Source of the DNA: a virus
Lineage: Duplodnaviria > Caudoviricetes
Reading direction: 5' to 3' (one strand)
Length of the DNA stretch: 50,710 bases
IMG/VR virus record: IMGVR_UViG_3300028610_000533
Span: 1 to 50,710 of that record
The translations under genes and the position numbers were made by a program. The notes beneath the pieces are model-generated. The model did not search any database. It was not told the origin of the DNA and saw nothing but the letters and a program-made list of their open reading frames with translations. Within the stretch, counting starts at the first letter, position 1. Every line of letters starts with the position of its first letter. Shown here in pieces: positions 1-29,238 of the stretch.

Positions 1-144
1 ACAGACAAGGCATGGAGCAGCGACAATAGGCGCGGTGCTGGGCGGGGATTCTATATTGTATATTGAGCGAGGCTCCCGTAATGTCAGGGAATTTGGGTTT
101 CAGCTTCAATTCGACAAGTATCTCAGCCCCGATCTCAGCATTTT
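1..144. repeat. Terminal direct repeat, copy 1 (circular assembly overlap)
   Basis: nt 1-144 are identical to 50567-50710, and the repeat falls mid-gene with the reading frame preserved across the junction. Confidence 0.95.
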
Positions 145-1198
145 ATCACCGGAGATAACAGATAGCGGAATCAAAGACGTGGCGTTTCAGCTAAGACCGG
201 ACCCGATTTTGTGGTGCGTGCTAAACGACGGAGAAATAGCTACGCTTACTTATCGCAGGGACCAAAGCGTAACTGCGTGGACCAAGCAGATTACAGATGG
301 TGATTTCGAGAGCGTGGCAGTTATTTCAAGTGGTGAGGATGAGGACGAGGTGTGGGTTTCTGTGGAGAGAGTGATTGACGGAACCACTTCACGGTGTATC
401 GAACAGTTCCAGCCGCAGGATTGGGGCGATCAGGAGGATGCGTGGTTTGTTGACTCAGGGGCTACGTCGGATTTGGGCGCAGCAGTAACAGTGACCGGAG
501 CAACTCAGGCGGACCCTGGCGTAATAACCGCAGTAGCGCATGGTTTCAGCAATGGCGAACAAGTGGTATTTCAGGACATAGGGGGGATGATTGAATTAAA
601 TGGCAATGTCTACTCTGTAGCCGCCTCCGCAGCGGACACATTCGCACTGAAAGACGTTACAAATACTACGGATTACGATACGACTAATTTTACAGCTTAT
701 ACTTCGGGTGGAACTGTCCAGCAGGTAGACAACACCTACACGGGATTAGAGCATCTTGAGGGTGAAACCGTGGCTGTTTTTGCAGACGGGATTGTGCAGG
801 AAAGCGAAGTTGTCTCAGGCGGGTCGGTTACGATTGATATATTTTCCAACGTCACTACCGTAGGGCTGCCGTATACTGCAAAGCTTGAAACCCTGCCTAT
901 AAGGGTTGATCCGCAAGATATGACAGTAAACAAGAAGGTACAGCGGCTATGGATAGATTTTTTCCAAACAGGTGACGCGAGTTTTGGCAACGGGGCGAAT
1001 AGTGACTTGTCTGAAGTATCGTTTTTTGAACAAGCATCCGTTACAGCTTTTCAGGAGTTCTTCACAAGCACTGTAAAGCTAAAGCAGTTCGCTTTTCCTT
1101 ACAGTGGGTCTATTAAGCAGTCTGTATATCTGGAAAGCAGTAAACCAGTACCTTTAGGCGTGAGAGCAATAGTGCCAGACATTGAGATAAGAAGATGA
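2..1198 (+). CDS. Tail tubular protein B / nozzle (T7 gp12-like), C-terminal part; the gene starts at 49215 and wraps through the origin (~849 aa)
   Basis: In frame with the 49215 ORF across the overlap. Motifs YxSPDLSILS, AFQLRPDPILWCVLNDG, TAWTKQITDG, WFVDSG and GLEHLEGETVAVFADG are typical of this family. Contains an E1-FCCH-like beta insert (TQADPGVITAVAHGFSNG...MIELNG). Confidence 0.85.
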   Translation, partial: QTRHGAATIGAVLGGDSILYIERGSRNVREFGFQLQFDKYLSPDLSILSPEITDSGIKDVAFQLRPDPILWCVLNDGEIATLTYRRDQSVTAWTKQITDGDFESVAVISSGEDEDEVWVSVERVIDGTTSRCIEQFQPQDWGDQEDAWFVDSGATSDLGAAVTVTGATQADPGVITAVAHGFSNGEQVVFQDIGGMIELNGNVYSVAASAADTFALKDVTNTTDYDTTNFTAYTSGGTVQQVDNTYTGLEHLEGETVAVFADGIVQESEVVSGGSVTIDIFSNVTTVGLPYTAKLETLPIRVDPQDMTVNKKVQRLWIDFFQTGDASFGNGANSDLSEVSFFEQASVTAFQEFFTSTVKLKQFAFPYSGSIKQSVYLESSKPVPLGVRAIVPDIEIRR

Positions 1199-7749: not shown

Positions 7750-10700
7750 TGGTCGTAGTCGTAGATGACAAAACCAGAACTCAGGTAAGGAGCAGGCTTC
7801 AAGAATTACAGGCACGTTCCGAAGTCGAGCAGAAGATACAGGGCGGTTCCATTATCAGTGACGCTGACCGTGAGGCTTTCCCCGACCTTGCCCAACAGCA
7901 AGATGATATCAATGAGATCAAGGGCAGGATAAAGCCAAGGGAACCGTTTGTAGTCCCTGACCTTCCCGAAAGTTTTATACCAGACCATACAGGCATAATC
8001 ACCGAAGATGTAATGAACGACCCCGATCCCTTCGGAACAAACGCTATGGGTTTTGAGCCTATCTTTGATACAGACGAATTGAAGAGAGCGTTCTGGTTCT
8101 CACAACAGTTCGGGTTCCCGCTCGAAACTACAATGCCTTTAACCGACCCGCTTGTGGAGAAATACGGTGATCCTGTCAAGATGCCGGATAACCAGCGTGG
8201 GTTTCTGGCGAATATAAAAGAGTCTGCTATCCGTGGACATGAAACAGTTGCCAGTGATGTTGCAATATACAACTCGGTTTGGCTGGGGCAAGGTGATTCA
8301 AGGGCAACACTTGATGCCCGAAGGAAACTCAATGAGGAAATCGCATTAGACCCAATTGAAGGTTCTTTGATTGCTGAGATAGTTTATGGTGGCGCTAATG
8401 TGGCGACTGGGTGGCTTACCAGTTCGGTCGAATCTCTGCCGGAAATGGCAGCGGGCGGACTCGTTGGTACGGCGGCAGGGGCAGTGGTGGGTGCGCCTGC
8501 TTTCGGTGTCGGTGCATTGCCGGGCGCAGTAATAGGCGGAAGAATAGGATTGAAGGCGGGCTATGTTGCCGGGACAGTTGATTTCTGGTACAGGCAAGGC
8601 GCAGGGGCGATGTATGCAGAAATGACCGACGAAGGTACTGACCCGGAAGTTGCACAGTGGGCAGCAAGTATCGCGGCGGTCCCCTATGCGGCGATTGAGT
8701 TGTCCCAGATATCCAGACTAACTCCCGGACTCAGAAGAACCGCACAGCAGGGCGTTAAAAAAGGCGTAATGAAGGTCATCCGTGAGGCCATTAAACAGTA
8801 CGGTAAGACGTGGAGTGCGGAGGTATTTGAAGAAGTCCAGCAGAAAATAGTCACCGAAACAGCCGGAGAAATGGCAGGGGCGATTGATGCTGTAAGAAAA
8901 CTTCTTGATACAGATGCACCCGTAGAAGTACAGGAAGAACGCCGCAGACTTGCAGAGGAAGCTATCGAGGAAACAGCCGCGTTATTCGATCCGACCGCAA
9001 TGTCGCCAGAAGACAAGGCAAGACGGGACGAGGCACTTCAAGGATACAAGGAAAGTGTTCTTGATTCTGTTGAAACCCTTACTGTAGAGGCTATTGAAGC
9101 GGCGAAGTCTCTTGCTCTTTTGCCGGTTGGTAATGTGGCGGTTGATATAACAACCGGAACAAGGGAAGTATTGGATGCTAAGAAACGTGCAGATGTCAAT
9201 GCCAAGCTGGATGCCGACAAGACGGCAGCTTTCACCGCTTCGGAGAAAACAGATATCAGTGACGCAGCCAAGGCCACAATAGAGATTATAGAGGACAAGG
9301 GACCATTAGCACCAGCCGAATCACAGAAACTGGACTTCCTGAAAGCCAACCAAAATAATCCGAACAATCTCATTCTCGGTTTCGGGATGGAACATGAACC
9401 GACTACCTCTTTGGAATTGACGGGGGACGTGCTTGAAGATACAGTTTCAGGTAAATTAGAGTCATTGGTGGCGGAATTCGTGAATGTCGAACCGGACCCC
9501 GACGGAACCCGCAGGCTTGTATTCCAGACAGCCGCAGATGCTCAGAGCGCTGCTCAATCCTTGGGCGATAGGATGGACCAGCAAGGCGAAGATATCAGTA
9601 TGCACATTAACGGGAACATCCTTGATATCACTGTATCGCCAGAGCAAGAGGCTGAGTTGACAGGAGAGCCCGTAACACCCCCGACAGAGGCCCTTGCTGT
9701 TGCGCCAGTGGCCGAACCCGTCACGGAGGCAGCAAAGGCGGTCCCGGAAGCAGAGGCCATACAGCCTCCCGTAGAGGTTCCTGAGGCAGAGTTGCTTGAG
9801 CAAGCAAGGGAAATACCGGAAGCACCGGAAGCTGTGGAGCAGGTTGAAGTTCCTGAGACGGGCGAGATTATTGAGCCAAGCGAAAAAGAACCATTTGAAA
9901 TGACACGGGCAGAATTTCAAGAAGCTGCGCCCGTGGCGGACAAACCTAATGATGTGTTTTTTGTGAAGATTGGCAATAAGGATGTTGAGGTTATCCAGAA
10001 TCCAACATCGAGCGATAGAAGGCAGTTATCGAGAGAGGTAAGAGATGAATTTCCCGATTTACAAAGGGATGAACCAACAACACGTTCAACAAGGGACATT
10101 GCAGGAAATGAATTTATATGGAAAGCTGGGGATGCTATTCATGTAACAATAGAACCATTGATAACAGAGAGAATCGGAGAATCTGTCGGACAGAACCTTG
10201 AAAGACCGACTCATCAACGGGTAGTCTTCGATGCGGTTAAAGCTGGGGAAAGTGTACCACTGAATGTTCTGCAAGAATTTGAAGGCCAAGAATTTGCAGA
10301 TGAGGCAATCGCGGAACTTCAACGCGAAGAAATCCCCACAGGAAAACGCATAATCACACAAGAGGCTTTCGATGCGGCGTTGAAGCGGTTTACCGATCAA
10401 AGCAAGGTCACGACTGGCATCGACCCACAACAGTTGAAAGATGCAGTTATTATCGGTGCGTTTCATTTCGAGTCGGGTATCCGCAGATTCGGTGCATGGT
10501 CAAAGCGAATGATTGCCGACCTCGGCGAAAGTATCCAACCCCACTTACGGGAAGTCTGGACAGACATGCGGGCGGCAATAAAAGAGGGTGAATCGCTTCG
10601 CAGGCAAGTCCGTGGCGAAAAGAAAGCTGCCGCTGTCGGATTCAAGGCTGGCGAAAGAGCATCAAGAGAAAAGGCAAAGGTCGCGGTACAGAAATTGAAG

Positions 10701-13436
10701 CAAGCCCAGAGAATTACCGAAGCCCGTAAGCAAGAAGCAGCAGAACTCGTCAAAGCCTTTGCCCCCAAAGAACAAAGGGCCGATTTCCTGAAACGTGTCG
10801 CGGCGGTTAAGACTCCGAAGAACTTAGAGAAGATTATCGAGGCTATCGAAAAGGGTATTACCCGTGCCGAGAAGCGAGAATCTATCGGCAGACTCAACAA
10901 GGCAGTCAAGGCCATTAAACCCAAGAAGATGTTGCCTGAATTCAGGGATCAGGCCCAAAGCCTTGTAGACAGTTTGCAAGCAGGTAAACTCAGACCGGAA
11001 TCTGTTGTGCGTAATGATGACCTGAAAGATATGGCCCAACAGGTACTCGATCAGACACCGGAGGGGGTGGATTCAGCGGCATCGTTCGCAGCAGAAAGAA
11101 TCCTTGCCGAACTCAGAAGCAAAAAGGCCAAGACGTTTGAAGTCAATAAGCTGTCCGTAGAAGCTATTGACCAGATTGCCGACTCATTGACTGCCCTGCG
11201 GTTCCTTAACGAACAGGATACTATTGCGGCGAAATTCCAACAAGCCAAAGAAGCTATTCGCCGACAGAAGGAAATCAAAGAATCCGTAACCACGCCACCC
11301 AAAGGCACGGAACTTGTCAGGAAAGTTAAAATAATCCACGACAATATCGAGTCGGTTTCGGATGCCATATCAGGAGCAAGGCCCGGCACATACGATTTAT
11401 GGTTGAGAACCAAACCCATTATGACTAAGTATGTCTATGATGTTCTGGATGCAGGTGTTGATGTTCAATACAGACATGCCCAAGAAGCCAAGCGGGTCAT
11501 GTTACAGATACTCGCTGATAATAATGTAAGTCCCAACGAGATTGTTTCATGGTCGGCACGCCCCAGCTTGAAGAACACTATCAAGGAAAAGCTCGGTTTC
11601 AATCCCAATATAGTTGTTCACACATTCACCTTAGAGGATTCACAAGGGAATACAACAAAGTATGATTTCACCACAAACGAACTCATGGCAATCTTCATGC
11701 ACGCCCGCAATAGTCATAACTTCGCTGTCCTGCTGAATGATGGTGTCAACAGATTTGTTGGTGGGCAGAAGCAGAAGATTCGCGGATTCACAGTTGAGAT
11801 AGTCGATGATATGATTGCGGAGTTGACTACCCAACAGAAGAGCGTAGCCCGCCAGATCGGGTCTAAGTTGTTGGATGGTTTCAATCGGGATGCGATCAAC
11901 AAGACTTCTGTTGAGTTAGAGTTTTATGAAATTGCCAGAGTAGAGAACTACTTCCCCGCCCCCAGATCGATCACAAGAACTCTCAGGGGCGAACAAATGA
12001 GGCCATACATAATGCTTCTTGAGAGTATGGGTATGCTCAAAGAGAGAACCGGCATCAATAATCCCCTCCGGCTCACGGGATTCTTTGAAACTGTGTATGG
12101 TTCTAATAAGAACGCAGCAGCTTATGTTGGGTTGGCAAAACCACTTAGAGAAGTGAAGTCTGTACTAACACAAGATGTCACTGAGGCAATGGAGGATGCA
12201 GGCAGAAAAGCAGAGTCCGACAGATTACAGGATTTACTCACGCAGTTCGAGAACACAAGCCCTATCATCCAGCCGCTCGATAGAGCATTATTCAGGGCGT
12301 TGGGGGGCTTTGCAAGGTCGAAATTATTCCTTAACCTCAAAATCGCACCACGGCAGCAGATATCATTCACTCTCGTAACTGCCTACGTTGACCCGAAATA
12401 CATGACGGCGGCCAGAGGCATAGCCACAAAAGATGTTCAATCGCAGATTGACGCTATATCACCTCAGTATGGTACGGCACGCTCAGAAGGGTTACAGTTC
12501 GACAGGGATGTAGGTGATGCGTGGGCGCAGAACGAAATGCTCAACTACCTCACAGGGCAGGCGTCGATTGTAGACAAGGCTGCTCTGCCGATGCGGTTCT
12601 TCGACACAAACGCAATCCACGACATATTCAGGGTGGCAAAGGCCGAAGTAATTGGCGAGAATCCCAACATCGATATCAATAGCCGCGAAGGGCAGGCGTT
12701 GCTGAAAGACCGTTTCGATTGGTTAGTTCGCCACACCCAACCAATATGGCATGTTAAAGACAGGTCACTTCTTGGTGGGCAGAAGACAAACGCCCTTCTC
12801 AGGGCAGCGACAATGTTCATGTCCCAGAGAGAGCAGCTTATGCGCATGCAGATTAACGCAATCTCTGAGTTCTCGCAGAGCAAGAAGACTACAGCGGACA
12901 AGCTTCGCCTCGCAAGGGTTATGGGGACAGTGGGCTTGAACATGGCAGCGTTTACGCTCTACAACTTTGCATTCGCCACATTGGTACAGAGAAAAGACAG
13001 GGATATTTTAGACCTGATTCGCAACTTCTTCTCCGACATGATATCCTTGCCGTTCTTCGGCAACTGGTTTGCACGTTTGTTTGAGGCCATGTTCAATACT
13101 ACAGCAGGCAAGCCCTCGTTTCGGGACTTAGGCGAAACGGCGATTGAGTCGATAGCCAAAGATATTCTAATTGACGGGCTGTTGAATTACTGGAAATCCG
13201 CAAACCATTTCATCGAAGGTGACGATAGATGGGAAAGAGAGTTGCTTGTCGCTATAGATTCCACAGCCGAAGGGGTTGCGGCATTAACCGGATTACCTTA
13301 TTATGGGGCGAAAGAAGCGGTTAAGATTATTGATGCACAGATCAAGAGATTAGAAGAAACACCTGCACCCAGAGGGCGGCGGCGTCCGGCTACCAGACGA
13401 AGGAGTAGGCGACCAACCAGGCGAAGGAGCAGATAA
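7749..13436 (+). CDS. Large ejection / internal virion protein (gp16-like, 1895 aa)
   Basis: Size and synteny; Gly/Ala hydrophobic segment (AAGGLVGTAAGAVVG...); Pro/Glu linker; GAFHFESGIRRFGAWSKRM segment as in large polyvalent phage proteins; Arg-rich C-terminal tail. Confidence 0.7.
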   Translation: MVVVVDDKTRTQVRSRLQELQARSEVEQKIQGGSIISDADREAFPDLAQQQDDINEIKGRIKPREPFVVPDLPESFIPDHTGIITEDVMNDPDPFGTNAMGFEPIFDTDELKRAFWFSQQFGFPLETTMPLTDPLVEKYGDPVKMPDNQRGFLANIKESAIRGHETVASDVAIYNSVWLGQGDSRATLDARRKLNEEIALDPIEGSLIAEIVYGGANVATGWLTSSVESLPEMAAGGLVGTAAGAVVGAPAFGVGALPGAVIGGRIGLKAGYVAGTVDFWYRQGAGAMYAEMTDEGTDPEVAQWAASIAAVPYAAIELSQISRLTPGLRRTAQQGVKKGVMKVIREAIKQYGKTWSAEVFEEVQQKIVTETAGEMAGAIDAVRKLLDTDAPVEVQEERRRLAEEAIEETAALFDPTAMSPEDKARRDEALQGYKESVLDSVETLTVEAIEAAKSLALLPVGNVAVDITTGTREVLDAKKRADVNAKLDADKTAAFTASEKTDISDAAKATIEIIEDKGPLAPAESQKLDFLKANQNNPNNLILGFGMEHEPTTSLELTGDVLEDTVSGKLESLVAEFVNVEPDPDGTRRLVFQTAADAQSAAQSLGDRMDQQGEDISMHINGNILDITVSPEQEAELTGEPVTPPTEALAVAPVAEPVTEAAKAVPEAEAIQPPVEVPEAELLEQAREIPEAPEAVEQVEVPETGEIIEPSEKEPFEMTRAEFQEAAPVADKPNDVFFVKIGNKDVEVIQNPTSSDRRQLSREVRDEFPDLQRDEPTTRSTRDIAGNEFIWKAGDAIHVTIEPLITERIGESVGQNLERPTHQRVVFDAVKAGESVPLNVLQEFEGQEFADEAIAELQREEIPTGKRIITQEAFDAALKRFTDQSKVTTGIDPQQLKDAVIIGAFHFESGIRRFGAWSKRMIADLGESIQPHLREVWTDMRAAIKEGESLRRQVRGEKKAAAVGFKAGERASREKAKVAVQKLKQAQRITEARKQEAAELVKAFAPKEQRADFLKRVAAVKTPKNLEKIIEAIEKGITRAEKRESIGRLNKAVKAIKPKKMLPEFRDQAQSLVDSLQAGKLRPESVVRNDDLKDMAQQVLDQTPEGVDSAASFAAERILAELRSKKAKTFEVNKLSVEAIDQIADSLTALRFLNEQDTIAAKFQQAKEAIRRQKEIKESVTTPPKGTELVRKVKIIHDNIESVSDAISGARPGTYDLWLRTKPIMTKYVYDVLDAGVDVQYRHAQEAKRVMLQILADNNVSPNEIVSWSARPSLKNTIKEKLGFNPNIVVHTFTLEDSQGNTTKYDFTTNELMAIFMHARNSHNFAVLLNDGVNRFVGGQKQKIRGFTVEIVDDMIAELTTQQKSVARQIGSKLLDGFNRDAINKTSVELEFYEIARVENYFPAPRSITRTLRGEQMRPYIMLLESMGMLKERTGINNPLRLTGFFETVYGSNKNAAAYVGLAKPLREVKSVLTQDVTEAMEDAGRKAESDRLQDLLTQFENTSPIIQPLDRALFRALGGFARSKLFLNLKIAPRQQISFTLVTAYVDPKYMTAARGIATKDVQSQIDAISPQYGTARSEGLQFDRDVGDAWAQNEMLNYLTGQASIVDKAALPMRFFDTNAIHDIFRVAKAEVIGENPNIDINSREGQALLKDRFDWLVRHTQPIWHVKDRSLLGGQKTNALLRAATMFMSQREQLMRMQINAISEFSQSKKTTADKLRLARVMGTVGLNMAAFTLYNFAFATLVQRKDRDILDLIRNFFSDMISLPFFGNWFARLFEAMFNTTAGKPSFRDLGETAIESIAKDILIDGLLNYWKSANHFIEGDDRWERELLVAIDSTAEGVAALTGLPYYGAKEAVKIIDAQIKRLEETPAPRGRRRPATRRRSRRPTRRRSR

Positions 13437-15037: not shown

Positions 15038-15547
15038 TTAGGTAGTGGTGCATCGCGGCTGTATTATATTTAGTCTCGCAAACTCACCAAAAGCCTCCGA
15101 CGCAGCTTTATTGTATGTACCGGCGGCTCGCATCGGGCAGATATGACATCCAAGGTTAAGGTTTTTACCATCTACGGTTATTTGTGCAACGAATTTACTT
15201 TGGTTACTTTTCCATGATACACCTTTGAATCCGGTCTTGTTGGTACTTCTTGTCTTTTGATTACGAATATTCTCTTTTGTGGAACATGCTCTTAAATTGT
15301 GCCTCTGATTATCGCACCCATTACCGTTTTTGTGGTCGCCTAATTCTCCGTCTGCTAATCCCATTATGATGCGGTGCATGTGCAATATAGCCTGCTTGCC
15401 GCCTACGACGAGTCTGCGTTCAGCATAGATAGTGCCATGTTTTTCGTGCGCTGACCATTTGTGCCGAGCGAGATATGTATAATCAGCATTGTCTACGAGA
15501 GCGAAAGTGTTTGGGTGTTTAGGTGTTGATATATCGATCAGCTTCAT
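15038..15547 (-). CDS. HNH endonuclease with AP2 DNA-binding domain
   Basis: MHRIIMG...DHKNGNGCDNQRHNLR (HNH) and GFKGVSW...FVAQITVDGK..NLG...AYNKAA-like..FGEFARLN (AP2); start at ATG 15547 with GGAG SD. Confidence 0.9.
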   Translation of the reverse strand: MKLIDISTPKHPNTFALVDNADYTYLARHKWSAHEKHGTIYAERRLVVGGKQAILHMHRIIMGLADGELGDHKNGNGCDNQRHNLRACSTKENIRNQKTRSTNKTGFKGVSWKSNQSKFVAQITVDGKNLNLGCHICPMRAAGTYNKAASEAFGEFARLNIIQPRCTTT

Positions 15548-15667
15548 GTTACTATCTCCTATAATAGTTAATCCTAATAATATTGGGGCAGCAGGACAGT
15601 TAGGATGCCTGTCTTTTCGGTCGCTAAACCTATCTGCCCCGCATTGTAACACATCACATACCATCTG

Positions 15668-16138
15668 TCAATCACTTTCCCAATCAAGCAAAGCCTCTTT
15701 CATGGCGTGTTCTTCGATAAATTCCTCCAACTCCTTAATCCGCTTCCGCAATTCGGGAACATCAGTTCTGCCCTTATACACATCTTCGTAGACTTCCAAC
15801 TCCGTTATCCGCTTGTCTTTGTCTGCGATTTCCTGCTTCACGGGCTTTAATAATATCTCTACTGCATCATTGAAATTGCCCGCCAGTGCGCCTTTCAACT
15901 CTGCGATTTCCCTGTCGGCGGATTCAAGGCGAATGCCCACTTCACAAATAGCTTGGGCTATGCTCTCGTCCATGTCGTTGTCAATTAACCCGACCAAACA
16001 GTATTCTTGTTCGTCGGCCACAAACACAACCATCTGCCCGTCAACTCTCCGACAATATGGCTTTTCGCCACATCCGTTTGTTAATCCTAATACTACTTCC
16101 GCATGTGTCATTTCAACCTTTTTCGTGGCTTCACTCAT
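15668..16138 (-). CDS. Hypothetical coiled-coil protein
   Basis: ORF in the gene train; repeated KRITELE/KRIKELE. Confidence 0.55.
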   Translation of the reverse strand: MSEATKKVEMTHAEVVLGLTNGCGEKPYCRRVDGQMVVFVADEQEYCLVGLIDNDMDESIAQAICEVGIRLESADREIAELKGALAGNFNDAVEILLKPVKQEIADKDKRITELEVYEDVYKGRTDVPELRKRIKELEEFIEEHAMKEALLDWESD

Positions 16139-16529
16139 CTTTTACCTCGCTTTCGATAAGTTCGATAGACTTGAATAGGCGTAATGCGTATTTCACATTT
16201 CCAACAGCAAGACACCATGCAAGAGTAATGTCGCAATATGCGATTGTTCCAGTATGGGGAACAGTGAGGTTGGGCGAACACTTTAATGGGACACACCTCA
16301 CCTCATCCCCCGCAAACACGGCCTTCCCGTTCTTGTCGTCTGTGACATAGCGGCGGTTCCATGCGGCGATAAGTATTGCCCTTACCTCTTCATTAGTGAC
16401 TTTACCCGGAAACACCATCGTGCTTGACGCATTGCACTCAAAGCAACATACAAACCACCCATCTACCGCAATACTTCCATCTTGCATTTCCGCTTCGCCC
16501 CCGCAGTACGGGCATCTTTCAATTTCCAT
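16131..16529 (-). CDS. Lar (restriction alleviation)-like Zn ribbon fused to a YopX-like C-terminus
   Basis: CPYCGG...CFEC...AAWNRR is the Lar signature; it is followed by DKNGKAVFAGDEV (YopX-like). Confidence 0.7.
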   Translation of the reverse strand: MEIERCPYCGGEAEMQDGSIAVDGWFVCCFECNASSTMVFPGKVTNEEVRAILIAAWNRRYVTDDKNGKAVFAGDEVRCVPLKCSPNLTVPHTGTIAYCDITLAWCLAVGNVKYALRLFKSIELIESEVKDE

Positions 16530-17319
16530 GCTCTATCCTTTCAAACGAAGTTTTCCATACGAATGGATTCCCCCGCACATACCACGGCAGTCCCTTGTGC
16601 TCTCTGGTTTCAGTTCCTTCCGCCCACGGGTAGGATTCGTAATGGGTGATTACCCCTTTGCGGCGGCGGGGGCTTGGTTTTGAGTAGCAGGCGCCCCAGA
16701 GTCTCGCGTAAGCCACAAACGGCTTAGTAGTCCAGAACCCATCCCCGCACGAGTATTCGGTGAGTTCCGGGTAAACATCGCCACACCGCTGCAAAATTCC
16801 TTCTGCCTCAATATCTGCGTCACTTATATCCTGCACCCGCTCCACCCCATCCCCTGTTACTTTAAGCCATGTACGGGCATCTTTTTTGGGCATGTGGATG
16901 GAGGGGCGCCATTTAATATCTGCCGCAGTTATATCAACATCGTCTCCGTGCTCAGTGTCTTTGGCATCCCAGTGCAGCGGCATATCAGCCCTATACAGGC
17001 AATATCCCAGAGCTTCCCCGCTACAGTGATCCTGCCACGTCTCCCGACAATAAAGTAAATCTCCGACAGAGCCGAGAGGGTTTCTGATTAGCGTGCAGTG
17101 TTGTGATTTGGGTCCGCGATTATTACCCCAAAACATATCCCGCCATACCATGTTTTCTGGGGGGCAACGGAATTGCAATACGCCTGCGTCACTTAATCTG
17201 CCTTCTGTATTGGGCAGTGTGTGACAGTCAAGCTTAATCGGTCTCCGCGTCTGCGTCTTTCGGTCTTCCAGTACAGCCAGATTCATCGGGCCGTTGAAAA
17301 GTACGGGTCGCTCTTTCAT
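16519..17319 (-). CDS. ASCH/PUA-like phage protein
   Basis: MKERPVLFNGPM..AVLEDRKTQTRR, GDLLYCRETW, WRPSIHMPK, VERVQDISDAD..AEG and NPFVW family motifs. Confidence 0.8.
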   Translation of the reverse strand: MKERPVLFNGPMNLAVLEDRKTQTRRPIKLDCHTLPNTEGRLSDAGVLQFRCPPENMVWRDMFWGNNRGPKSQHCTLIRNPLGSVGDLLYCRETWQDHCSGEALGYCLYRADMPLHWDAKDTEHGDDVDITAADIKWRPSIHMPKKDARTWLKVTGDGVERVQDISDADIEAEGILQRCGDVYPELTEYSCGDGFWTTKPFVAYARLWGACYSKPSPRRRKGVITHYESYPWAEGTETREHKGLPWYVRGNPFVWKTSFERIEHGN

Positions 17320-17552
17320 ATCGTTTTCCCCAATTTCTCTATCAATGGTTTCATCTGACATCCGACATAGTGTCCTTTATCTGTTTGTTTCACTAAACTG
17401 TTGAGAATCTGTGTTGCTATAGGATTATTGCAAGCTTCATAGTTCCAGTTAGCTTGCGCCCATGCGACCGGACACGGTTCTTCACCGAGGAGACAATTAG
17501 AACACTCATCGTCGAATACCATGCCTTCGCTGCCATTACTGAAATATGCCAT
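17316..17552 (-). CDS. Conserved Cys-containing hypothetical phage protein
   Basis: MAYFSNGSEG..F...CSNC...CPV pattern. Confidence 0.55.
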   Translation of the reverse strand: MAYFSNGSEGMVFDDECSNCLLGEEPCPVAWAQANWNYEACNNPIATQILNSLVKQTDKGHYVGCQMKPLIEKLGKTI

Positions 17553-17553
17553 A

Positions 17554-17991
17554 TCAAATCCTTTCCGCCTCAATCTCGTCAACAAGCCATTTATGGTTAG
17601 GCCAGTTACCTGCATATTCTTTTCGGGCTTCCAGTGTCTGTCCCCGTAACCATTTGCCTACATTTTCCCTGTCTATGTCACGCTGCTTGTCCTGTCGCTT
17701 GCGCATTATCTCTTGCGGGTCTGTAATCGCTGCACCGAATTCCAGTGTCCAATATGAGTTATATACCCATGATTTGAAGTGTTTCCACGGGGGCACGAAA
17801 TCTGTAGCGTTCTTGCGGTGGGCTATCTGCTTCTTTATGGCTGGAACGAGCAGGGGGATGATTACCGAACGGTTGCCGTTAAATCGTTTCAGGCTCATAA
17901 AATATTCCCATTCGATAACCGGACCTCTCTTTGTGCCAGGGTAGATATATCTTGCTGCCTCGAAACGTATCTTCATATCAAGCTTGTCCAT
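17554..17991 (-). CDS. Putative replication-initiator C-terminal-like protein
   Basis: FE....YPG.K...FVPPWKHFKSWVYNSYW resembles the C-terminal domain of phage replisome organisers. Confidence 0.45.
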   Translation of the reverse strand: MDKLDMKIRFEAARYIYPGTKRGPVIEWEYFMSLKRFNGNRSVIIPLLVPAIKKQIAHRKNATDFVPPWKHFKSWVYNSYWTLEFGAAITDPQEIMRKRQDKQRDIDRENVGKWLRGQTLEARKEYAGNWPNHKWLVDEIEAERI

Positions 17992-18743
17992 TACTTCTCT
18001 CCAAATAAGGCATATTTGTCACGTTCGTCCTGTATCCGCTTCTCTGCTATCTTGCAGTAGTCGGGGCTTATCTCTATGCCTATGAAGTGACGGCCCATAC
18101 GGACAGCGGCAACACCTGTTGTGCCGGAACCACACGTAAAATCCAGAATAGTATCGCCCTCATTGGTGTATGTCTTGATTAGATATTTCATTAGGGCTAC
18201 CGGCTTTTGCGTGGGGTGCGCGGAGTTATTTTCTGATGCTATACTTATAAGGTTGAAGGGGTACTCCTCCCCGTTGTTACTTTTGCTTAAAGCCGTGTGT
18301 TTTCCGTATCCCTCAAACTCGCCGCTCCTGCTCACAAACCTCTCTCTCACCTGTTTCATCTGTGGGTTGTAGTTTGCCTGTTTACCGTAAAACACAACGA
18401 TATCTTCGGTAGTACGCAAAGGTTGTCTTTTAGCGTTCAAGAAACCAGTCTTACGGCTTTTCTCCCACACCCAACAATACGCAAACATTTTCATGTTAGA
18501 CGCTATTAGGGTTGTAGTGAATGGCTGCGAGGCCATCAAGACAATAGCACTGTCAGGTTTTGCTATGCGGCGCAACCTGTGCCACATTGGTTCAATAGGA
18601 ATCACATAATCCCATTTACATTGAGTTGTCCCATAAGGCGGGTCAGTCAGAACCAAATCCACACAGTTATCCGGCAATTGCTTCATAACCTCAAGGCAGT
18701 CCCCACAGATGACGGTATCAAGAATATCATTCACGTCAATCAT
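17991..18743 (-). CDS. DNA adenine/N4-cytosine methyltransferase (beta class)
   Basis: GDCLEVM, LTDPPY catalytic motif, HPTQKP and DFTCGSGTTG SAM-binding motif. Confidence 0.92.
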   Translation of the reverse strand: MIDVNDILDTVICGDCLEVMKQLPDNCVDLVLTDPPYGTTQCKWDYVIPIEPMWHRLRRIAKPDSAIVLMASQPFTTTLIASNMKMFAYCWVWEKSRKTGFLNAKRQPLRTTEDIVVFYGKQANYNPQMKQVRERFVSRSGEFEGYGKHTALSKSNNGEEYPFNLISIASENNSAHPTQKPVALMKYLIKTYTNEGDTILDFTCGSGTTGVAAVRMGRHFIGIEISPDYCKIAEKRIQDERDKYALFGEK

Positions 18744-18752
18744 GCTATTTCT

Positions 18753-18971
18753 CTATTCAAAATACTTCTTATAGTACCCGTTCAGTCTTGCCCATTGCTC
18801 AATAGCGTCAGGGCGGGCCTCAAGTGCCTCCCTGGTCCTATCGTCACTCGTTTGGCATATACCCTTCACGAACGCCGTAAGATGATTGTCGCCCGCCCTC
18901 TTAGCTATCTTCCAATGAGCGGTGAAGGCTGCTATTTGGAACTTGTCGCGTAATGTGGCGGGATTGCTCAC
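18753..18971 (-). CDS. Hypothetical protein
   Basis: ORF fills the gap in the gene train. Confidence 0.4.
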   Translation of the reverse strand: MSNPATLRDKFQIAAFTAHWKIAKRAGDNHLTAFVKGICQTSDDRTREALEARPDAIEQWARLNGYYKKYFE

Positions 18972-19153
18972 GTCGGTATCCTCACTTGGAAATTTCTACC
19001 TTTTGCCAATTCCAATACCTTCTCATGCAGCTTCTCCGATATCTCAGGGGTTATCAGGAATCCGCAGTCGGACACCTCAAGCCCGATGTGTGTACCGTGG
19101 TTAGTTAGCCAGAGTTTATCCTCGTCTTCGTCTGTGAAAGTGTGTGTTTTCAT
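18968..19153 (-). CDS. Hypothetical protein
   Basis: ATGA-coupled to the ninG-like gene. Confidence 0.45.
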   Translation of the reverse strand: MKTHTFTDEDEDKLWLTNHGTHIGLEVSDCGFLITPEISEKLHEKVLELAKGRNFQVRIPT

Positions 19154-19605
19154 TTCAATTGCTCCCAAATCTCTCTTAAATCAGAAATGTACAACGTCAC
19201 GGTTTTGGCATTCTCGTGTATCAGTTCGTCAATTACCCCATCACCATAGGTTTTCTGCATGAATCGGGTATAAGCAATCAGTTCTCCCCCGTGGTACATA
19301 TTGCACTGCTCACACTGGGCGTGTACGTTCCTCAGATTGAACAGGGCGCTATGTCGTCTCCCTTGGATGAAATGCCCCGCTTGCAGGTCTTTCGTGCTCC
19401 CACAGGTCACACAGGCCCCGTCGCGGCGAATTACATAGTCATGTAAAGCCTCAAGACACCATTTGAGCCATTGCTTCTTCAGATAGGCTTTCAGCGGGGT
19501 TGCCAGTACGTCAAGGTTTTTGGCAATATCGCCAACATCTTGCCCTCGCCGACTCATCTTCCCAGCCATGATCTTAATGCTACGGGTTAGTTTCTTGTTT
19601 CTCAT
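19150..19605 (-). CDS. ninG: NinG/Rap-family recombination endonuclease
   Basis: YVIRRD..CVTCG....QAGHF.....LFNLRNVHAQCEQCN...GE...Y motif; start at ATG 19605 with GGAG SD. Confidence 0.85.
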   Translation of the reverse strand: MRNKKLTRSIKIMAGKMSRRGQDVGDIAKNLDVLATPLKAYLKKQWLKWCLEALHDYVIRRDGACVTCGSTKDLQAGHFIQGRRHSALFNLRNVHAQCEQCNMYHGGELIAYTRFMQKTYGDGVIDELIHENAKTVTLYISDLREIWEQLK

Positions 19606-19963
19606 TATTCTCCTTTGGCTTGAGCATGTCGGCGGCCTGCTGCATGGCCTCAAGCTGGTCTTTGTCAAGATTACCGCTGTTCCTGAACTCGTTAAATAGT
19701 CTCTCCAACGCCTCCCGCAGCCGTGTATTGTCGTCCAATAGGTCGGGGGTGTCTTGGCGGGCGTGGGCGATGAAGGTCCTGTCATTTTCAGGGAACGCCC
19801 CACCTTCCGGCTCAGCATAAACGCTTTGTGTACGACTGGTTTTTGCGATTAAGACCCGATGGCAAAATCCTTCCGGATCATCCTTAGGGCTTGTTCCGTC
19901 CAGATACCACGGCCCTTCCGTCGCCGCCTCGCACCGCTTCCTGATGGCGTCTAAGTCAATCAT
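19580..19963 (-). CDS. Ead/Ea22-like protein
   Basis: LDAIRKRCEAATEGPW...NDRTFIAHARQDTPDLL family motif. Confidence 0.7.
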   Translation of the reverse strand: MIDLDAIRKRCEAATEGPWYLDGTSPKDDPEGFCHRVLIAKTSRTQSVYAEPEGGAFPENDRTFIAHARQDTPDLLDDNTRLREALERLFNEFRNSGNLDKDQLEAMQQAADMLKPKENNEKQETNP

Positions 19964-25344: not shown

Positions 25345-25547
25345 TATTCTATCCTCACAAAATTAGCTGCGTTTTCCATTTCTTCTATCTTTGCCGTACA
25401 GCAGTCCCAATCTCTCAGATACTCCCACGCGTCGTCAGCCCGCTTCTGGCAGTCTTCCGTGCTTTGGTGGGGGTCAAGCACTGCAATTGCTCTTTCCCAC
25501 CTTATACGGGCGTCTACGGCGTCTGCTTTTAGCTGGACGTAGGTCAT
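25344..25547 (-). CDS. Hypothetical protein
   Basis: Coupled ORF. Confidence 0.45.
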   Translation of the reverse strand: MTYVQLKADAVDARIRWERAIAVLDPHQSTEDCQKRADDAWEYLRDWDCCTAKIEEMENAANFVRIE

Positions 25548-25927
25548 TTACTCACCATTATCTTACGGGCCTTTTTCATGTTACGGATTAACTCTCGGAT
25601 TGCTTGGCGGACAGGGGCGATGGGGCCGCCGTCGATTAGCCCGTGTATTGCGGTTCGTGTATTACCCCATCCTTGTTTTGAGCAGTGTGTTTCACCATGA
25701 GCCCAAATGGGACATTTACCGCACTGCGTTACCCCGTGCCTATCCCTTCCAACATGGATGCAACAAGCGCAATAATGACACCAGATATAATCTATGCTCG
25801 TCCGTTCAAATTTCGCCCGCAATGCTTTCGCGGGGGCTTTGAGCATCTGTGTATACTTCTCAATACAGTTATCCAATGCCGCCAATGGTCCCTTTTTGGC
25901 AGCCCGCTCTACTTCTGTTTTTGTCAT
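25544..25927 (-). CDS. Cys-rich hypothetical protein
   Basis: CACC...CGKCPI...C cluster. Confidence 0.5.
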   Translation of the reverse strand: MTKTEVERAAKKGPLAALDNCIEKYTQMLKAPAKALRAKFERTSIDYIWCHYCACCIHVGRDRHGVTQCGKCPIWAHGETHCSKQGWGNTRTAIHGLIDGGPIAPVRQAIRELIRNMKKARKIMVSK

Positions 25928-26175
25928 CCACTTCACAGCACACCCCCAAACAAAGCCCATAGTATCAGGCCACCTACAAAGATAGCAGAAGCACATTCCA
26001 GAATGTCTTTTGTCTTACACATGATTATCTCCAAAAATTGGCCCAGACAGGAATCGGAACCTGTGCTGGGCCGTCTCCATGAGAGGAGGTGTGATGTTTG
26101 TGTTCCGATTCATTCCGATTACTCCGATTTAATTAGCTTACAATAGACCCTAACCTATTTTTGGGCAAAGTCAAA

Positions 26176-26466
26176 TTATTTCTTCCCGCCCAATGCTTTT
26201 TTGATCTGGGGATTGGTAGCCTCGATATACTTTTTCATCTCAGCCTCAGAAGCAATAGCCATAGCCATGCGGAACTCTACTGCCCCCCTGTGCATCATTG
26301 TCTGGCGGTTCTTTGCCACTGCCGACATCATCTTAACGGCAATCTTAACCTTGTCGCTATCCGCGTCGATCTGGTCGCTCAGGGCTTGCTGGATGATATC
26401 CATAGACCTGTTCTCAATTGCGCTCATTTTGTCCGCTTTTGCTTCTGTCATCGTTAAAGTGTTCAT
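26176..26466 (-). CDS. Small helical protein immediately downstream of the pentamer array (candidate accessory gene)
   Basis: GAAAGGA SD and ATG are embedded in the last array unit; 96-aa predicted all-helical protein. Confidence 0.65.
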   Translation of the reverse strand: MNTLTMTEAKADKMSAIENRSMDIIQQALSDQIDADSDKVKIAVKMMSAVAKNRQTMMHRGAVEFRMAMAIASEAEMKKYIEATNPQIKKALGGKK

Positions 26467-27177
26467 TTCATTTCCTTTCTCATATGGTCTGTTCATTTCG
26501 CCTTGCTTTCGTCTCGAATCAAATCGTGTCCGCTTCTCTCATCTACAATCAGCTTGTTTTCGCCTCAAGTCTTGTCCATTTCACTCAACTCAACTCAAAT
26601 TGCTTTCACTTCAACTCACATCTTTTTTCATCAAGCCAACTCATCGCTATTTGTTTTCAATTCAAGTCACATTTCATCTCTTCCATTCACATTGATTCGA
26701 TTCGCGTCCCGTTGTTCTCGCTTCAAATCTAATCCTCGCCTATCAAATCACTTCTCATGGCCTCACTTTGCTTTCAAGTCAAATCTCATCGTGTCCGTTC
26801 TCGTCCCATCATTTCCGCTCCACTTGATTTCAACTCTAATCTCATCCACTCGGCTTTATTCGGATTCTCTCCGTTCTCATTGTTTTCAACTCCAATCGCT
26901 TATCCTGCCTTCGCTTCTTGTGTCCTCTGTTCAGCTTGTTTTCAGTTCACATCCAATTCTCTCGGCTCTGGTCCAATCGACTCCGATCTCGTTGCTTTCA
27001 GATCTAAACAAATCATGTCTACTCAAATCGAGTGCCATCATATCAGCTTGCTTTCGTTTCTGCTCACGTCAATTCGCCTTCCATCGTTTCCATTCGTGTC
27101 CTATCACGTCTGATCATCTTGTTTTCAAATCTTCTCCCGTTCTCTCTTTACTGATCAGTTCAAATCACTTTGCTTTC
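26463..27177 (-). repeat. Array of 13 units, each a handle GAAA(A/G)CAA plus 8-13 NNN-GA pentamers (putative guide-RNA array, VIPR-like)
   Basis: The + strand motif TTGYTTTC (two copies have one mismatch) starts at 26503, 26554, 26600, 26651, 26712, 26768, 26824, 26880, 26936, 26992, 27048, 27119 and 27170. All spacings are 6+5n nt (46-71). By hand count 105 of 127 pentamers carry TC (GA on the - strand) in register. Confidence 0.9.
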
Positions 27178-27722
27178 CATTCTTTCACAACGAACCGCCC
27201 GAATGTAGGCCCGTACACGCCCAGCCCGCAACGCATCCCTGCTACATCGTACATGGCATGAATGATATCTTCGGCTACTGAGTCGTCTGTTACCTGAACT
27301 TTGAAGCTACAGGCCCACGGGGTATTCAGAACGGGACGCTCACACGTCGCCCTGCTGTTGCTGGCATTGATGAATGACCGGATATCAATGTCATCGTGCT
27401 TTGTCCGCTTTGGCGTAAAGTACACCTTGCCGTTATCACCCATAACCCACACACACGCCTTGCAGAAATTGAGATACTTCGTGCCCTTCTTTGACTCGAC
27501 CTCGGAACCGTAAATCTTCGCCGCACCCGGACGGAACCTGTTGCCGATCAAGAGCATTCGGAGATTGTCGGTCGGGATGTAGACCCCCTTTTTGTCAATC
27601 CACATCTTTTCGGGGATGGTCTGCTTCTTCTGTTTCTTTGTATCGCCGGGCTTCTCAGGCAGGGGGAATCTGCTGAACATGATCGGAACGATACCTTCAA
27701 TCTTACATTCTACTTCATACAT
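27165..27722 (-). CDS. Stand-alone Cas7/RAMP-like RNA-binding protein (Vipr-like)
   Basis: N-terminal strand VECKIEGIVPIMF, YIPTDNLRMLL (compare IPxSSxKG in Cas7-group RAMPs), RPVLNTPWACSF and the C-terminal Gly-rich loop AGMRCGLGVYGPTFGRF; AGGAG SD before ATG 27722; no other cas genes seen. Confidence 0.75.
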   Translation of the reverse strand: MYEVECKIEGIVPIMFSRFPLPEKPGDTKKQKKQTIPEKMWIDKKGVYIPTDNLRMLLIGNRFRPGAAKIYGSEVESKKGTKYLNFCKACVWVMGDNGKVYFTPKRTKHDDIDIRSFINASNSRATCERPVLNTPWACSFKVQVTDDSVAEDIIHAMYDVAGMRCGLGVYGPTFGRFVVKEWKAK

Positions 27723-27742
27723 GACACTACTCCTATAGATAG

Positions 27743-27819
27743 AACCCTCCCCCAAACGGAGAATCTGCTAAGATACTGAGGTGTCGGGGGAAGGTTAGAA
27801 TGTTTTTTGTATCTTAGCA
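27743..27819 (-). promoter_or_regulatory. Structured 5' leader of the Cas7-like gene (interleaved helices)
   Basis: TGCTAAGATAC/GTATCTTAGCA (27766-76 / 27809-19) interleaved with AACCCTCCCCC/GGGGGAAGGTT (27743-53 / 27786-96). Confidence 0.55.
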
Positions 27820-27826
27820 TGTCTAA

Positions 27827-27854
27827 AGTATAGCACAGAATCGGCCCTTGTCAA
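27827..27854 (-). promoter_or_regulatory. Sigma70-type promoter driving the Cas7-like gene, the array and the early operon
   Basis: TTGACA (27854-49), 16-nt spacer, TGc-TATACT (27832-27). Confidence 0.75.
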
Positions 27855-27873
27855 ATTCTTTTTTTATTTTAGC

Positions 27874-27906
27874 TTGACATTCGGGAAAAATTCGCTAAAG
27901 TATAGT
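27874..27906 (+). promoter_or_regulatory. Divergent sigma70-type promoter
   Basis: TTGACA at 27874-79 and TAAAGT at 27896-901. CTAAAGTATAG occurs at both 27823-33 and 27895-905, a possible shared operator. Confidence 0.55.
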
Positions 27907-28012
27907 ATCTGATTAAGAGTAATGCTCTTTGGTATTTATTTACGGAGGTGTCTCATGTGGCCATTTGATTGGTAGATTGAGAACTTAACCCAGTATTTAG
28001 GAATGACTTTAA

Positions 28013-28089
28013 TGAACCGTGACCAAGAAAAGTACGATAACCACCCAACAGGTGTCAACTTCACGGTTCAGCCTCTGGGTGGTTTTTTT
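28013..28089 (+). terminator. Attenuator-like leader: terminator with a competing helix
   Basis: TGAACCGTGA/TCACGGTTCA (28013-22 / 28061-70) interleaved with AACCACCCA/TGGGTGGTT (28039-47 / 28076-84), followed by a T run. Confidence 0.65.
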
Positions 28090-28101
28090 GTGGAGTAAAT
28101 T

Positions 28102-28272
28102 ATGAATATTCACGATGCGTATGAAATGGAAATGGAACGAATCGACGCTTGCGACGAATGGAGCGAAGAAGAAAAGCAAGAGGAGCGGATGGCCGTTGAG
28201 GAACAGGCAAGAGAAGCAGAATACGCAAGGCAGGCAGAGCATGAGAATGTAGAACGGCGATATGGATATTAA
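28102..28272 (+). CDS. Small very acidic protein (56 aa, not in the ORF track)
   Basis: GGAG SD; MNIHDAYEMEMERIDACDEWSEEEKQEERMAVEEQAREAEYARQAEHENVERRYGY. Confidence 0.6.
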   Translation: MNIHDAYEMEMERIDACDEWSEEEKQEERMAVEEQAREAEYARQAEHENVERRYGY

Positions 28273-28320
28273 TATGCCCACCTTTGATTATACGCCTGTC
28301 GGGGCTATTGTGAGGGCGGG

Positions 28321-28509
28321 ATGACCAAAGACAATGCTAAAGGCAAGGATGTTTGTGATAACTGCGAGGGCTTTGAATACGAAGAAACAACTGCGCAAGG
28401 CTACTGCAACGACCCCCAGAGCGACCATTTCAGGCATGTATTCATGTTCTTTCACACAGCCTGCGACCGGCTGCATAAAAGAGAACCAAATAAATTTGAA
28501 CCAAAGTGA
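28321..28509 (+). CDS. Small Cys/His Zn-binding protein
   Basis: CDNC...C...H...C. Confidence 0.5.
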   Translation: MTKDNAKGKDVCDNCEGFEYEETTAQGYCNDPQSDHFRHVFMFFHTACDRLHKREPNKFEPK

Positions 28510-28517
28510 GATTTTTC

Positions 28518-28546
28518 TTGACAAAACAATAAGGTGACTGTAGGAT
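28518..28546 (+). promoter_or_regulatory. Sigma70-type promoter
   Basis: TTGACA-17 nt-TAGGAT, followed by a structured leader and a terminator-like hairpin at ~28635-28676. Confidence 0.65.
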
Positions 28547-28689
28547 AACTTCATGCATAGTGAAGATAGACAATTGAGTAGTTACAAATCCCCGCGAGGC
28601 GTTTCGTCGTCTCAACTATGCAAGCGGGCCAATATAAGGGTTTCCCGCCTTCACAGGCCGGAGCCCTTACTTTTTGCGCTGAGGTGGGG

Positions 28690-28983
28690 ATGAGCAAGAC
28701 AGGATCAGGACCATCAGGAGGACAGGCAGGGTTTTTGGGCAAGCATGGGAAGTTTGTCACTTGCGACCCCGCAGAGCACGAATCATCCACAGACACCATA
28801 ATTATAGACCTGTTGAAGCATTACCTCAAGCAACTGTCGAAATGGGAGATAACTTTTCTGTCTGATATCTACAGCAACGCCCCATTATCGAGAAAACAGC
28901 ACATAAAAGTAAATAAGATCAAAAAACGAATAGAAAAACTGAACAGTCCGCCGGTGGATGTAGCGGCAGGGTCGAGTACCTGA
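28690..28983 (+). CDS. Hypothetical protein
   Basis: GAGGTG SD before ATG 28690; LSKWEITFLSDI...LSRKQ motif common in small phage proteins. Confidence 0.55.
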   Translation: MSKTGSGPSGGQAGFLGKHGKFVTCDPAEHESSTDTIIIDLLKHYLKQLSKWEITFLSDIYSNAPLSRKQHIKVNKIKKRIEKLNSPPVDVAAGSST

Positions 28984-29238
28984 CCGGACAGGCATGATAG
29001 ACGGCCTGAGAGCGTCTTGAGTACGAATACAGGGTGTTTTATTAAGTCCTATAGCGATTCCCCCAGTTATAGGCCATTTATGCGATTGCGAACTTATATC
29101 TCGATACGGCTGACCCGGCAAAGTACGTTATAAGAGGGGCGATACTGCATACGGACTTATACCGCAGATATCGAACTCCTGAGCATTCGTGCTTAGGGGT
29201 TCTCTGCGCCGTCCTAACCCGCAGACAGGAAACGAGCA

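Follow-up and report, generated by a model that had tools for sequence, protein, structure and literature searches.

A phage locus of NNNGA pentanucleotide repeats and a Cas7-like gene that very probably encodes a VIPR system

Introduction

Systems of the Viral Interference Programmable Repeat (VIPR) kind, described in 2026, carry out CRISPR (clustered regularly interspaced short palindromic repeats)-like, RNA-guided silencing of competing genetic elements at the level of double-stranded DNA, and the published loci comprise a phage-borne minimal RAMP protein, guide RNAs (vrRNAs) built from 5-nucleotide (nt) repeats and an accessory gene (bioRxiv 10.64898/2026.04.26.720920). One code has been worked out, GGY/NN, whose positions are numbered G1-G2-Y3-N4-N5 and which skips a single target base (bioRxiv 10.64898/2026.04.26.720920; 10.64898/2026.04.26.720927). 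The text of the VIPR paper counts seven types and 667 loci and allows for a "related consensus", and it lists the repeats NNNGG, YNNNG and NNNNG as well as staggered arrays (bioRxiv 10.64898/2026.04.26.720920), and a genomic language model has reported VIPR arrays of the forms GAC/NN, CAC/NN, WGT/NN and TGH/NN in 21 clusters (bioRxiv 10.64898/2026.10.21.760802). Here we analyse a 50,710-nt stretch of viral DNA (Duplodnaviria; Caudoviricetes; IMG/VR record IMGVR_UViG_3300028610_000533, positions 1 to 50,710; hereafter the window), in which the gene for a 185-amino-acid (aa) Cas7-like protein, here called vipr, is followed by an array of NNNGA pentamers. We consider it very likely that this locus is a phage-encoded VIPR system consisting of a Cas7-like Vipr, 13 candidate guide units and a small accessory gene.

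The natural comparison is with type II VIPR, known from Escherichia phage SUSP1 and from a prophage of Pseudomonas fulva (bioRxiv 10.64898/2026.04.26.720920; 10.64898/2026.04.26.720927). As described in the text of these preprints, type II loci share with ours a minimal phage setting, a Vipr of ~190 aa that is homologous over its full length, 5-nt units in which some positions are fixed and others vary, an array that comes immediately after the gene and a small accessory gene, for which ours has a candidate. The two differ in the repeat itself: ours fixes two bases (GA) and varies three, whereas type II fixes three (GGY) and varies two. We observed the anatomy of the locus, the fold and homology of its protein, the family-wide linkage of gene and array and the residue differences of its clade directly, and these are described first.

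Results

A punctuated NNNGA array starts in the last codons of vipr

The locus consists of three features, all on the minus strand:

27165..27722, minus strand: vipr gene, encoding the 185-aa Cas7-like RAMP protein (P0001), called from its SUSP1 Vipr homology and RAMP fold
26463..27177, minus strand: array of 13 candidate vrRNA units, called from NNNGA phase and 6-nt punctuation
26176..26466, minus strand: gene of a 96-aa accessory protein with a KNRQT motif, a candidate vap-like partner, called from tblastn conservation
27177, 27126, 27055, 26999, 26943, 26887, 26831, 26775, 26719, 26658, 26607, 26561 and 26510, minus strand: starts of the in-register GA plus 6-nt punctuation

The array begins inside the last codons of the 185-aa gene. 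Twelve exact GAAANCAA sites are spaced by 51, 71, 56 (five times), 117, 51, 46 and 51 nt, and the 117-nt interval hides one more punctuation, GA+GAACAA, which brings the number of units to 13 and makes every spacing equal to 6+5n. Units 1-13 hold 9, 13, 10, 10, 10, 10, 10, 10, 11, 9, 8, 9 and 8 pentamers, so that the range of 8-13 repeats per unit lies close to the 9-16 given in the text for type II VIPR. NNNGA is in register in 105 of the 127 pentamers (98/119 in units 1-12 and seven of the first eight of unit 13), leaving 22 off-consensus. Position 5 is A in 122/127 and position 4 is G in 110/127, while positions 1-3 are compositionally flat with no strong preference; the base after GA is likewise unconstrained (A 33, C 20, G 35, T 39). 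This unit parse reproduces the number of units, the pentamer counts, the 105/127 figure and the 6+5n spacing of the original prediction, which a model had made from the letters of the window and their open reading frames (ORFs).

The phase is far stronger than base composition would give. The best-phase GA count is 77, compared with 47.9 +/- 2.9 (maximum 56) in 1000 dinucleotide-preserving shuffles (z = 10.1), and when both strands of the 50.7-kb contig were scanned, the ten highest-scoring segments all overlapped the array region, against a contig median of 22. RNA structure in the array did not exceed that of shuffles (z = -0.98). The locus thus shows the tandem pentanucleotides with fixed and hypervariable positions, roughly 9-16 to a vrRNA, that typify VIPR. 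The longest repeat among the units is the 6-8-nt punctuation, and the long direct repeats, contiguous spacers and cas operon of class 1 CRISPR were not seen. General scans revealed neither a CRISPR array nor other cas genes, no dedicated whole-contig search for CRISPR repeats having been made, and no Cas-related PHROG family was reported among the 58 contig ORFs searched. The tract had been predicted to be neither a satellite nor a CRISPR; the 5-nt period, the lack of any repeat beyond 6-8 nt and the lack of a reported Cas-related family bear out the second half of that statement.

A 252-aa ORF lies opposite the array at 26503..27261 on the plus strand. Its translation is a low-complexity sequence rich in serine and leucine. 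We regard this ORF, which an annotator might mistake for a gene, as a by-product of the TC-rich complement of the array.

The Vipr protein has a RAMP fold and is homologous to SUSP1 Vipr

The 185-aa protein has no match in Pfam or NCBIfam and falls into an unnamed PHROGs family. The sole meaningful sequence match in the PDB is the SUSP1 Vipr protein (36pp), with an E value of 7e-4 for the single sequence, 8.6e-8 for a profile of 36 clade members and 2.1e-28 for a 94-member superfamily profile that includes intermediates from an exhaustive search; the last match covers residues 1-188 of 202. A search with the clade profile returned 1347 cluster representatives at E <= 0.001, indicative of a large superfamily, and 12 of them at E <= 1e-30. 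AlphaFold2 modelled the protein with a predicted local distance difference test (pLDDT) value of 93.3 and a predicted template modelling (pTM) score of 0.86. Foldseek gave 87 PDB matches to this model at E <= 0.001, led by Cmr4, Csm3, type VII Cas7 and Cas7-11; its PDB library ends on 8 April 2026 and no Vipr entry was among the matches. Among viral structures, the top three matches are all RAMP-like proteins from phages, ~200 aa long, with template modelling (TM) scores of 0.67-0.71.

Taken together, the protein is a stand-alone minimal RAMP with a thumb and a G-loop, homologous to a characterised Vipr. The RAMP/Cas7 fold had been predicted from a few sequence hallmarks and now has a confident model and Cas7-family structural matches behind it. 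The likeness to VIPR that the original prediction put forward is upheld by homology to SUSP1 Vipr that reaches 2.1e-28 over the full length. With the backbone proteins of class 1 CRISPR (Csm3, Cmr4, type VII Cas7, Cas7-11) the protein shares an RRM core, a thumb and a glycine-rich loop. Polymerisation along guide RNA with a fixed step is established for Cas7 and would apply here by analogy, with the difference that the step is 5 nt here and 6 nt there, and that our guides are not contiguous.

We also considered whether the alpha-bundle is shortened in this clade. The insert measures 36 aa in the window protein and 30-46 aa in nine clade members (A3), with a median of 43 in other Vipr-like proteins, and we dropped the idea since lengths this close say little.

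Residues that read G1 and Y3 are replaced in the clade

In the SUSP1 structures, as described in the text, the reading of G1 falls to H17 and D177, R138 and W178 hold G2, and Y3 occupies a pocket with R179 that excludes purines (bioRxiv 10.64898/2026.04.26.720927). We compared the corresponding columns between nine clade members and 85 other Vipr-like proteins, and for one column also in 36 clade sequences (A1). The R179 column is R in 82/85 of the other proteins and G in 7/9 clade members and in 36/36 of A1; in the window protein it is G171. At the D177 column, D occurs in 48/85 of the others and in 0/9 of the clade, which has V, A, S or N instead. In contrast, the R138 column is R in 78/85 others and in 9/9 clade members, corresponding to the invariant R129 of the window protein, and W178 corresponds to Y170. 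Invariant residues of the window protein further include P130 and, in the G-loop, G162, C165, G166, G171, P172, F174, G175 and R176.

Compared with type II VIPR, then, the residues that contact G2 are conserved, whereas those that read G1 and line the Y3 pocket are replaced. If the roles assigned in the SUSP1 structures carry over, the clade would have kept the residues holding G2 and lost the one reading G1, and the change from R179 to G171 could admit adenine to the Y3 pocket. On the strength of the aligned residues, we infer from homology that the pentamer maps onto G1-G2-Y3-N4-N5 as N-G-A-N-N. As its changes fall on precisely the G1- and Y3-reading residues of the solved structure, the clade is a natural experiment in how the code is set by the protein.

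Gene and array are linked across the family

We collected 13 viral, two genome-collection and 80 metagenome loci encoding relatives of 42-90% identity. All 15 viral and genome-collection loci have NNNGA chains just downstream of the gene, on the gene's strand. Among the metagenome loci, three of the 80 end at most 2 nt from the gene and lie outside the downstream count; of those with at least 49 nt downstream, 76/77 carry an NNNGA array, the exception (L089) having units upstream only. Overall, 91 of the 92 testable loci have a downstream NNNGA array on the gene's strand, and opposite-strand chains are nearly absent (one each in L009, L044, L045 and L069). The original prediction had named a lack of adjacent periodic arrays in homologues as a result that would speak against it; such arrays were found in 15/15 and 76/77 loci.

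Family-wide, we counted 498 units of at least seven pentamers, with a mode of 9-11, in which 4686/5089 pentamers end in GA (92%). The collected set comprised 449 unique guides, and a search for pairs of guides at least 75% identical turned up none from the window. The clade is abundant, with 119 metagenome stretches encoding a relative, and it fixes two bases and varies three.

Several variants of this layout were seen. Upstream of vipr, the window has no NNNGA units, and such units occur in L004 (2077..2228), L008 (2852..2997) and L011 (2743..2975), as well as in L017, L021, L045, L046 and L089, as in SUSP1. L007 contains a 15-pentamer unit (3691..3765) that comprises a whole 10-pentamer unit of L006 plus five pentamers at the 5' end; two units may have fused here when the punctuation between them was lost. 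In G009, the record of L013, vipr (67..530) is split by an in-frame TAA and the array is still phased (7/9, 13/15 and 12/14), which may represent an orphan array or an assembly error. Among the triplets of the 449 guides, AGA (52 versus 86 expected) and GGA (40 versus 63.5) are depleted, as expected if an out-of-register GA beside the fixed GA is selected against.

A hexamer shifts the GA phase between units

The hexamers that follow an in-register GA in the window are AAGCAA (six times), AAACAA (five times), AATCAA (once) and GAACAA (once). Of 356 six-nt junctions across the family, 355 have C at position 4, and the number with A at position 6 is likewise 355; the consensus is R-M-D-C-M-A, which shifts the GA phase by +1. 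The original prediction had seen here a handle at the head of each unit; the repeated element is real, but a more fitting description is that 6 nt are inserted behind an in-register GA. Because a filament that needs GA every 5 nt should stop at such a shift, the hexamer would delimit guides, most likely ending one filament or guide and starting the next.

Within-locus triplet identity (47 loci) climbs from 0.40 at pentamer -3 through 0.58 at -2 to 0.71 at -1, the last pentamer ahead of the hexamer, and is 0.27-0.31 after it. As judged from sequence, this rise in conservation towards the 3' end of the unit matches the polarity of published vrRNAs, in which a variable tract is followed by a tail. 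The structured 3' tail itself is not present. Unlike the SUSP1 clade, with the long structured tail and pseudoknot described in the preprint text, the units here end in semi-conserved last pentamers and the hexamer, and a search of 25500..29000 against Rfam matched no family, hence no hammerhead between units.

A conserved small gene follows the array

The vipr gene had been predicted to stand alone. That part of the prediction fails, because a conserved 96-aa accessory gene (26466..26176) comes after the array. By tblastn it was found in 62/95 related loci, on the same strand and 147-1304 nt past the end of vipr, whereas seven other neighbours of vipr in the window are conserved in none of the related loci. 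The 96-aa protein matches no family in Pfam, PHROGs, NCBIfam, PDB profiles or the ESM Atlas, in which it differs from type II VIPR as the preprint text presents it. Together with the phase-breaking punctuation, this gene provides further handles on guide processing and the control of filament length.

Comparison with non-canonical VIPR repeats

Two fixed and three variable bases, as in YNNNG, and head-to-tail units without ribozymes or long tails are features that our array shares with the alternative-repeat VIPR types as these appear in the preprint text, and the "1 nt overlapping positions" of staggered arrays may correspond to the +1 phase shift seen here. Unlike YNNNG-type repeats, which we compared by text only, the base after G is A (122/127) rather than a pyrimidine. 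The arrays found by the language model (bioRxiv 10.64898/2026.10.21.760802) resemble ours in their Vipr-like neighbour, 5-nt period and ~10 repeats, and include a GA-initial motif; as their text gives it, however, they were modelled with three fixed and two free bases, and here the base after GA is free.

Neither NNNGA nor GA/NNN was found in the searched text of the VIPR preprints, and the string "nnnga" occurs 0 times in the text of bioRxiv 10.64898/2026.04.26.720920. The array had been proposed as a distinct variant. As far as these texts go, this holds for the specific GA/NNN motif and does not hold more broadly, since non-canonical VIPR repeats are already in print. What is new here, measured against those texts, is the GA/NNN consensus, the clade-specific G-loop changes, the phase-breaking hexamer and a novel accessory gene. 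NNNGA departs from the canonical GGY/NN motif, not from the VIPR family.

A working model and the reading of the variable bases

For transcription, processing, filament assembly and DNA targeting, we infer the course of events from SUSP1 Vipr. The 13-unit array would be co-transcribed with vipr and processed at the punctuation into vrRNAs. Vipr protomers would polymerise along each unit, one per five nucleotides, clamping the fixed G and A and presenting the variable bases, which would pair with double-stranded DNA of a competing genetic element and thereby silence it. Five guide bases would be used for three target bases, as in the published gearing, but with no base skipped. On this reading, to which we give a little better than even confidence, pairing involves each of the three variable bases, and target triplets are read contiguously. 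A wider proposal is tentative, and we would sooner expect it to need revision than to stand as it is: the clade would hold G and A, show three bases and read the target continuously, enabled by loss of the G1 aspartate and the Y3 arginine, and the 96-aa protein would perhaps be a small-subunit-like partner acting in trans, at a stage resembling Cas7 plus Cas11.

The alternative closest to this is the same VIPR working by the published rule. Only n1 and n2 (with n1, n2 and n3 the variable bases of NNNGA, n1 and n2 corresponding to N4 and N5) would then pair, one target base would be skipped, and n3, in the G1 slot, would be flipped out and unread. We think this rather unlikely for the present clade, and statistics over the 449 unique guides are the reason. 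Were n3 unread, it should be freer than its neighbours; yet differences between related guides are spread evenly (n1 38, n2 43, n3 40), and a wobble bias was rejected because they are not concentrated at n3. In addition, n3 depends on n1n2 as in natural DNA, with TAA (30 versus 46.9 expected), TAG (28 versus 47) and CTA (8 versus 31) depleted. Across the intervening GA, between n3 and the next n1, the odds of TA are 0.78, compared with 0.988 +/- 0.037 when the order of triplets is shuffled (0/2000 shuffles reach the observed value); the depletion agrees with the reference for adjacent bases (0.73 at distance 1) rather than for bases one apart (0.91 at distance 2). The 3-mers at these junctions also follow the genomic 3-mer bias (0/500 shuffles reach the observed value). 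A composite likelihood prefers no skip (gain +2.2) to one, two or three skipped bases (-11.5, -19.5 and -32.2), and no skip wins 254/300 bootstraps. These guide statistics weakly favour contiguous triplets over the published 1-nt skip, as against the single skipped base of type II VIPR in the preprint text. Other reading rules share what is left of our confidence once slightly over half has gone to contiguous triplets and a little under a third to the 1-nt skip.

One guide speaks to the period of the target. L008 (3668..3737) and L013 (686..755) share a 14-pentamer guide whose triplets read FTDPPY(T/A)VDYYKI(N/D) in frame, which is the region of catalytic motif IV in N6 DNA methyltransferases. 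Between the two copies, four third and two first triplet positions differ. A wobble-tolerant scan of IMG/VR with this guide gave five matches, all five of them motif IV of phage ParB-N6 DNA methyltransferase genes, in frame and in the sense orientation. The guide fits a 3-nt target period, and does so equally under no skip and under one, wobble skipping accounting for it just as well.

A number of results weigh against the contiguous reading, or against functional targeting as a whole, and we collect them here. Structural work offers a precedent for the published rule: each SUSP1 protomer pushes out one base of the target by means of its thumb and alpha-bundle (bioRxiv 10.64898/2026.04.26.720927), and a one-base displacement per protomer argues for at least one skipped base. 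One skip also wins 42/300 bootstraps, and at the junction pair a pairwise likelihood puts distance 2 (+12.6) above distance 1 (+7.4), a test that is ambiguous in that pairs which really are adjacent are not resolved by it either. In simulations of perfect phage DNA copies, the true rule gained about +70, far more than the +2.2 observed. The consensus is NNNGA and not the GGY/NN (YNNGG) by which VIPR arrays are recognised, and 3'-end conservation among the window units is weak (0.28-0.43).

The same holds for the search for targets, in which none of the rules tried turned up a natural target for a single guide. Ten pairing rules applied to the window and L001-L015 gave chance-level or negative results. 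When all 449 guides were run with ten rules against 0.5 Mb of sequence, or with four rules against 0.85 Mb that included ten whole relative phage genomes, they performed the same as reversed-guide controls. Within the window's own genome the best match was 20/27, not significant after 13 tests, and a peptide-level search with guides translated in six frames was negative or at chance level. The window's genome and the relatives covered likewise gave no backing to the idea that the carrier phage directs its guides at its close relatives. Three of six IMG/VR pattern scans had no match at all, and one gave 59 chance-level matches with n3 agreement centred on 1-3 of 8. Two candidates were examined and set aside. 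The methyltransferase matches described above are homologues of a target and not the target, with 20-23/28 agreement at n1n2 and 1-7/14 at n3. An 18-nt string of six consecutive L006/L007 triplets has exact, in-frame matches to genes for the catalytic subunit of poly(A) polymerase (PF19244) on six IMG/VR contigs from two sequence families (L101-L106); agreement outside the seed is 5-8/27 and the hosts are probably not bacteria, and we judge the match probably due to chance.

Could the array then be something other than a set of working guides, be it a remnant that is decaying or orphaned, or an untranslated 3' tract with a regulatory or decoy role that does no more than soak up the protein? 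The missing targets and the 22/127 off-consensus pentamers point that way, as does the phased array that G009/L013 keeps despite its TAA-interrupted vipr, and decoy and solo vrRNAs have been reported in a preprint (bioRxiv 10.64898/2026.10.15.759431). We nevertheless judge it improbable: the window's vipr has an unbroken reading frame and is part of a conserved family, the 5-nt phase and punctuation are kept over 13 units and ~90 loci with 92% GA, and hypervariable guide content combined with conserved fixed letters is the signature of selection on a code. Still more improbable, to the point of being barely credible, is a tract that acts as DNA (protein-binding sites, or a recombination or packaging signal) beside an unrelated RAMP gene. 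Nothing specific was found in its favour. A DNA-level function sits poorly with the strict strand polarity relative to the RAMP gene at 91/92 testable loci, with the continuity of the tract with the gene's 3' end, served by one promoter-like site with no terminator-like site between, and with an adjacent protein homologous to an RNA-binding filament protein solved with 5-nt repeat RNA.

The choice between the contiguous and the published rule has practical weight. If the three variable bases are read contiguously, guides carry 50% more information per protomer, and the rule for designing programmable silencers from this protein would become simpler. If the published rule applies, the locus is another member of the VIPR family with a different fixed dinucleotide.

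Upstream elements and phage context

Two further features lie upstream of vipr:

27827..27854, minus strand: sigma-70-like promoter (TTGACA, 16 nt, TG-TATACT), matching 11/12 consensus positions plus the TG extension
27723..27826, minus strand: 5' leader with a possible long hairpin (minimum free energy -26.6 kcal/mol, z = -1.9)

Promoter-like sites are not in excess in the region overall (4 found versus 4.2 expected), and we assign this one to vipr because of its position, ~100 nt upstream of the start codon, and the quality of the match. The leader showed no blastn-detectable conservation among loci L001-L095. No terminator-like site was found between vipr and the array or within the array.

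The source contig is that of a phage, in line with the mostly phage- or provirus-encoded nature of VIPR: the record is classed as a virus, and a comparison of 58 ORFs with PHROGs identified terminase, portal/adaptor, major head, tail and internal virion genes, together with a methyltransferase, an HNH endonuclease and Lar-like and NinG-like genes. Megablast gave no match to deposited phage records. Elsewhere on the contig, a protein of 1895 aa (7749..13436, plus strand) gives a weak match to DarB-like antirestriction proteins and another to a large family whose function is unknown, and is probably an injected anti-defence protein. A cluster at 15038..19818 (minus strand) holds the HNH endonuclease, the Lar-like restriction-alleviation protein, the DNA methyltransferase, which has an LTDPPYG motif, and the NinG/Rap-like gene.

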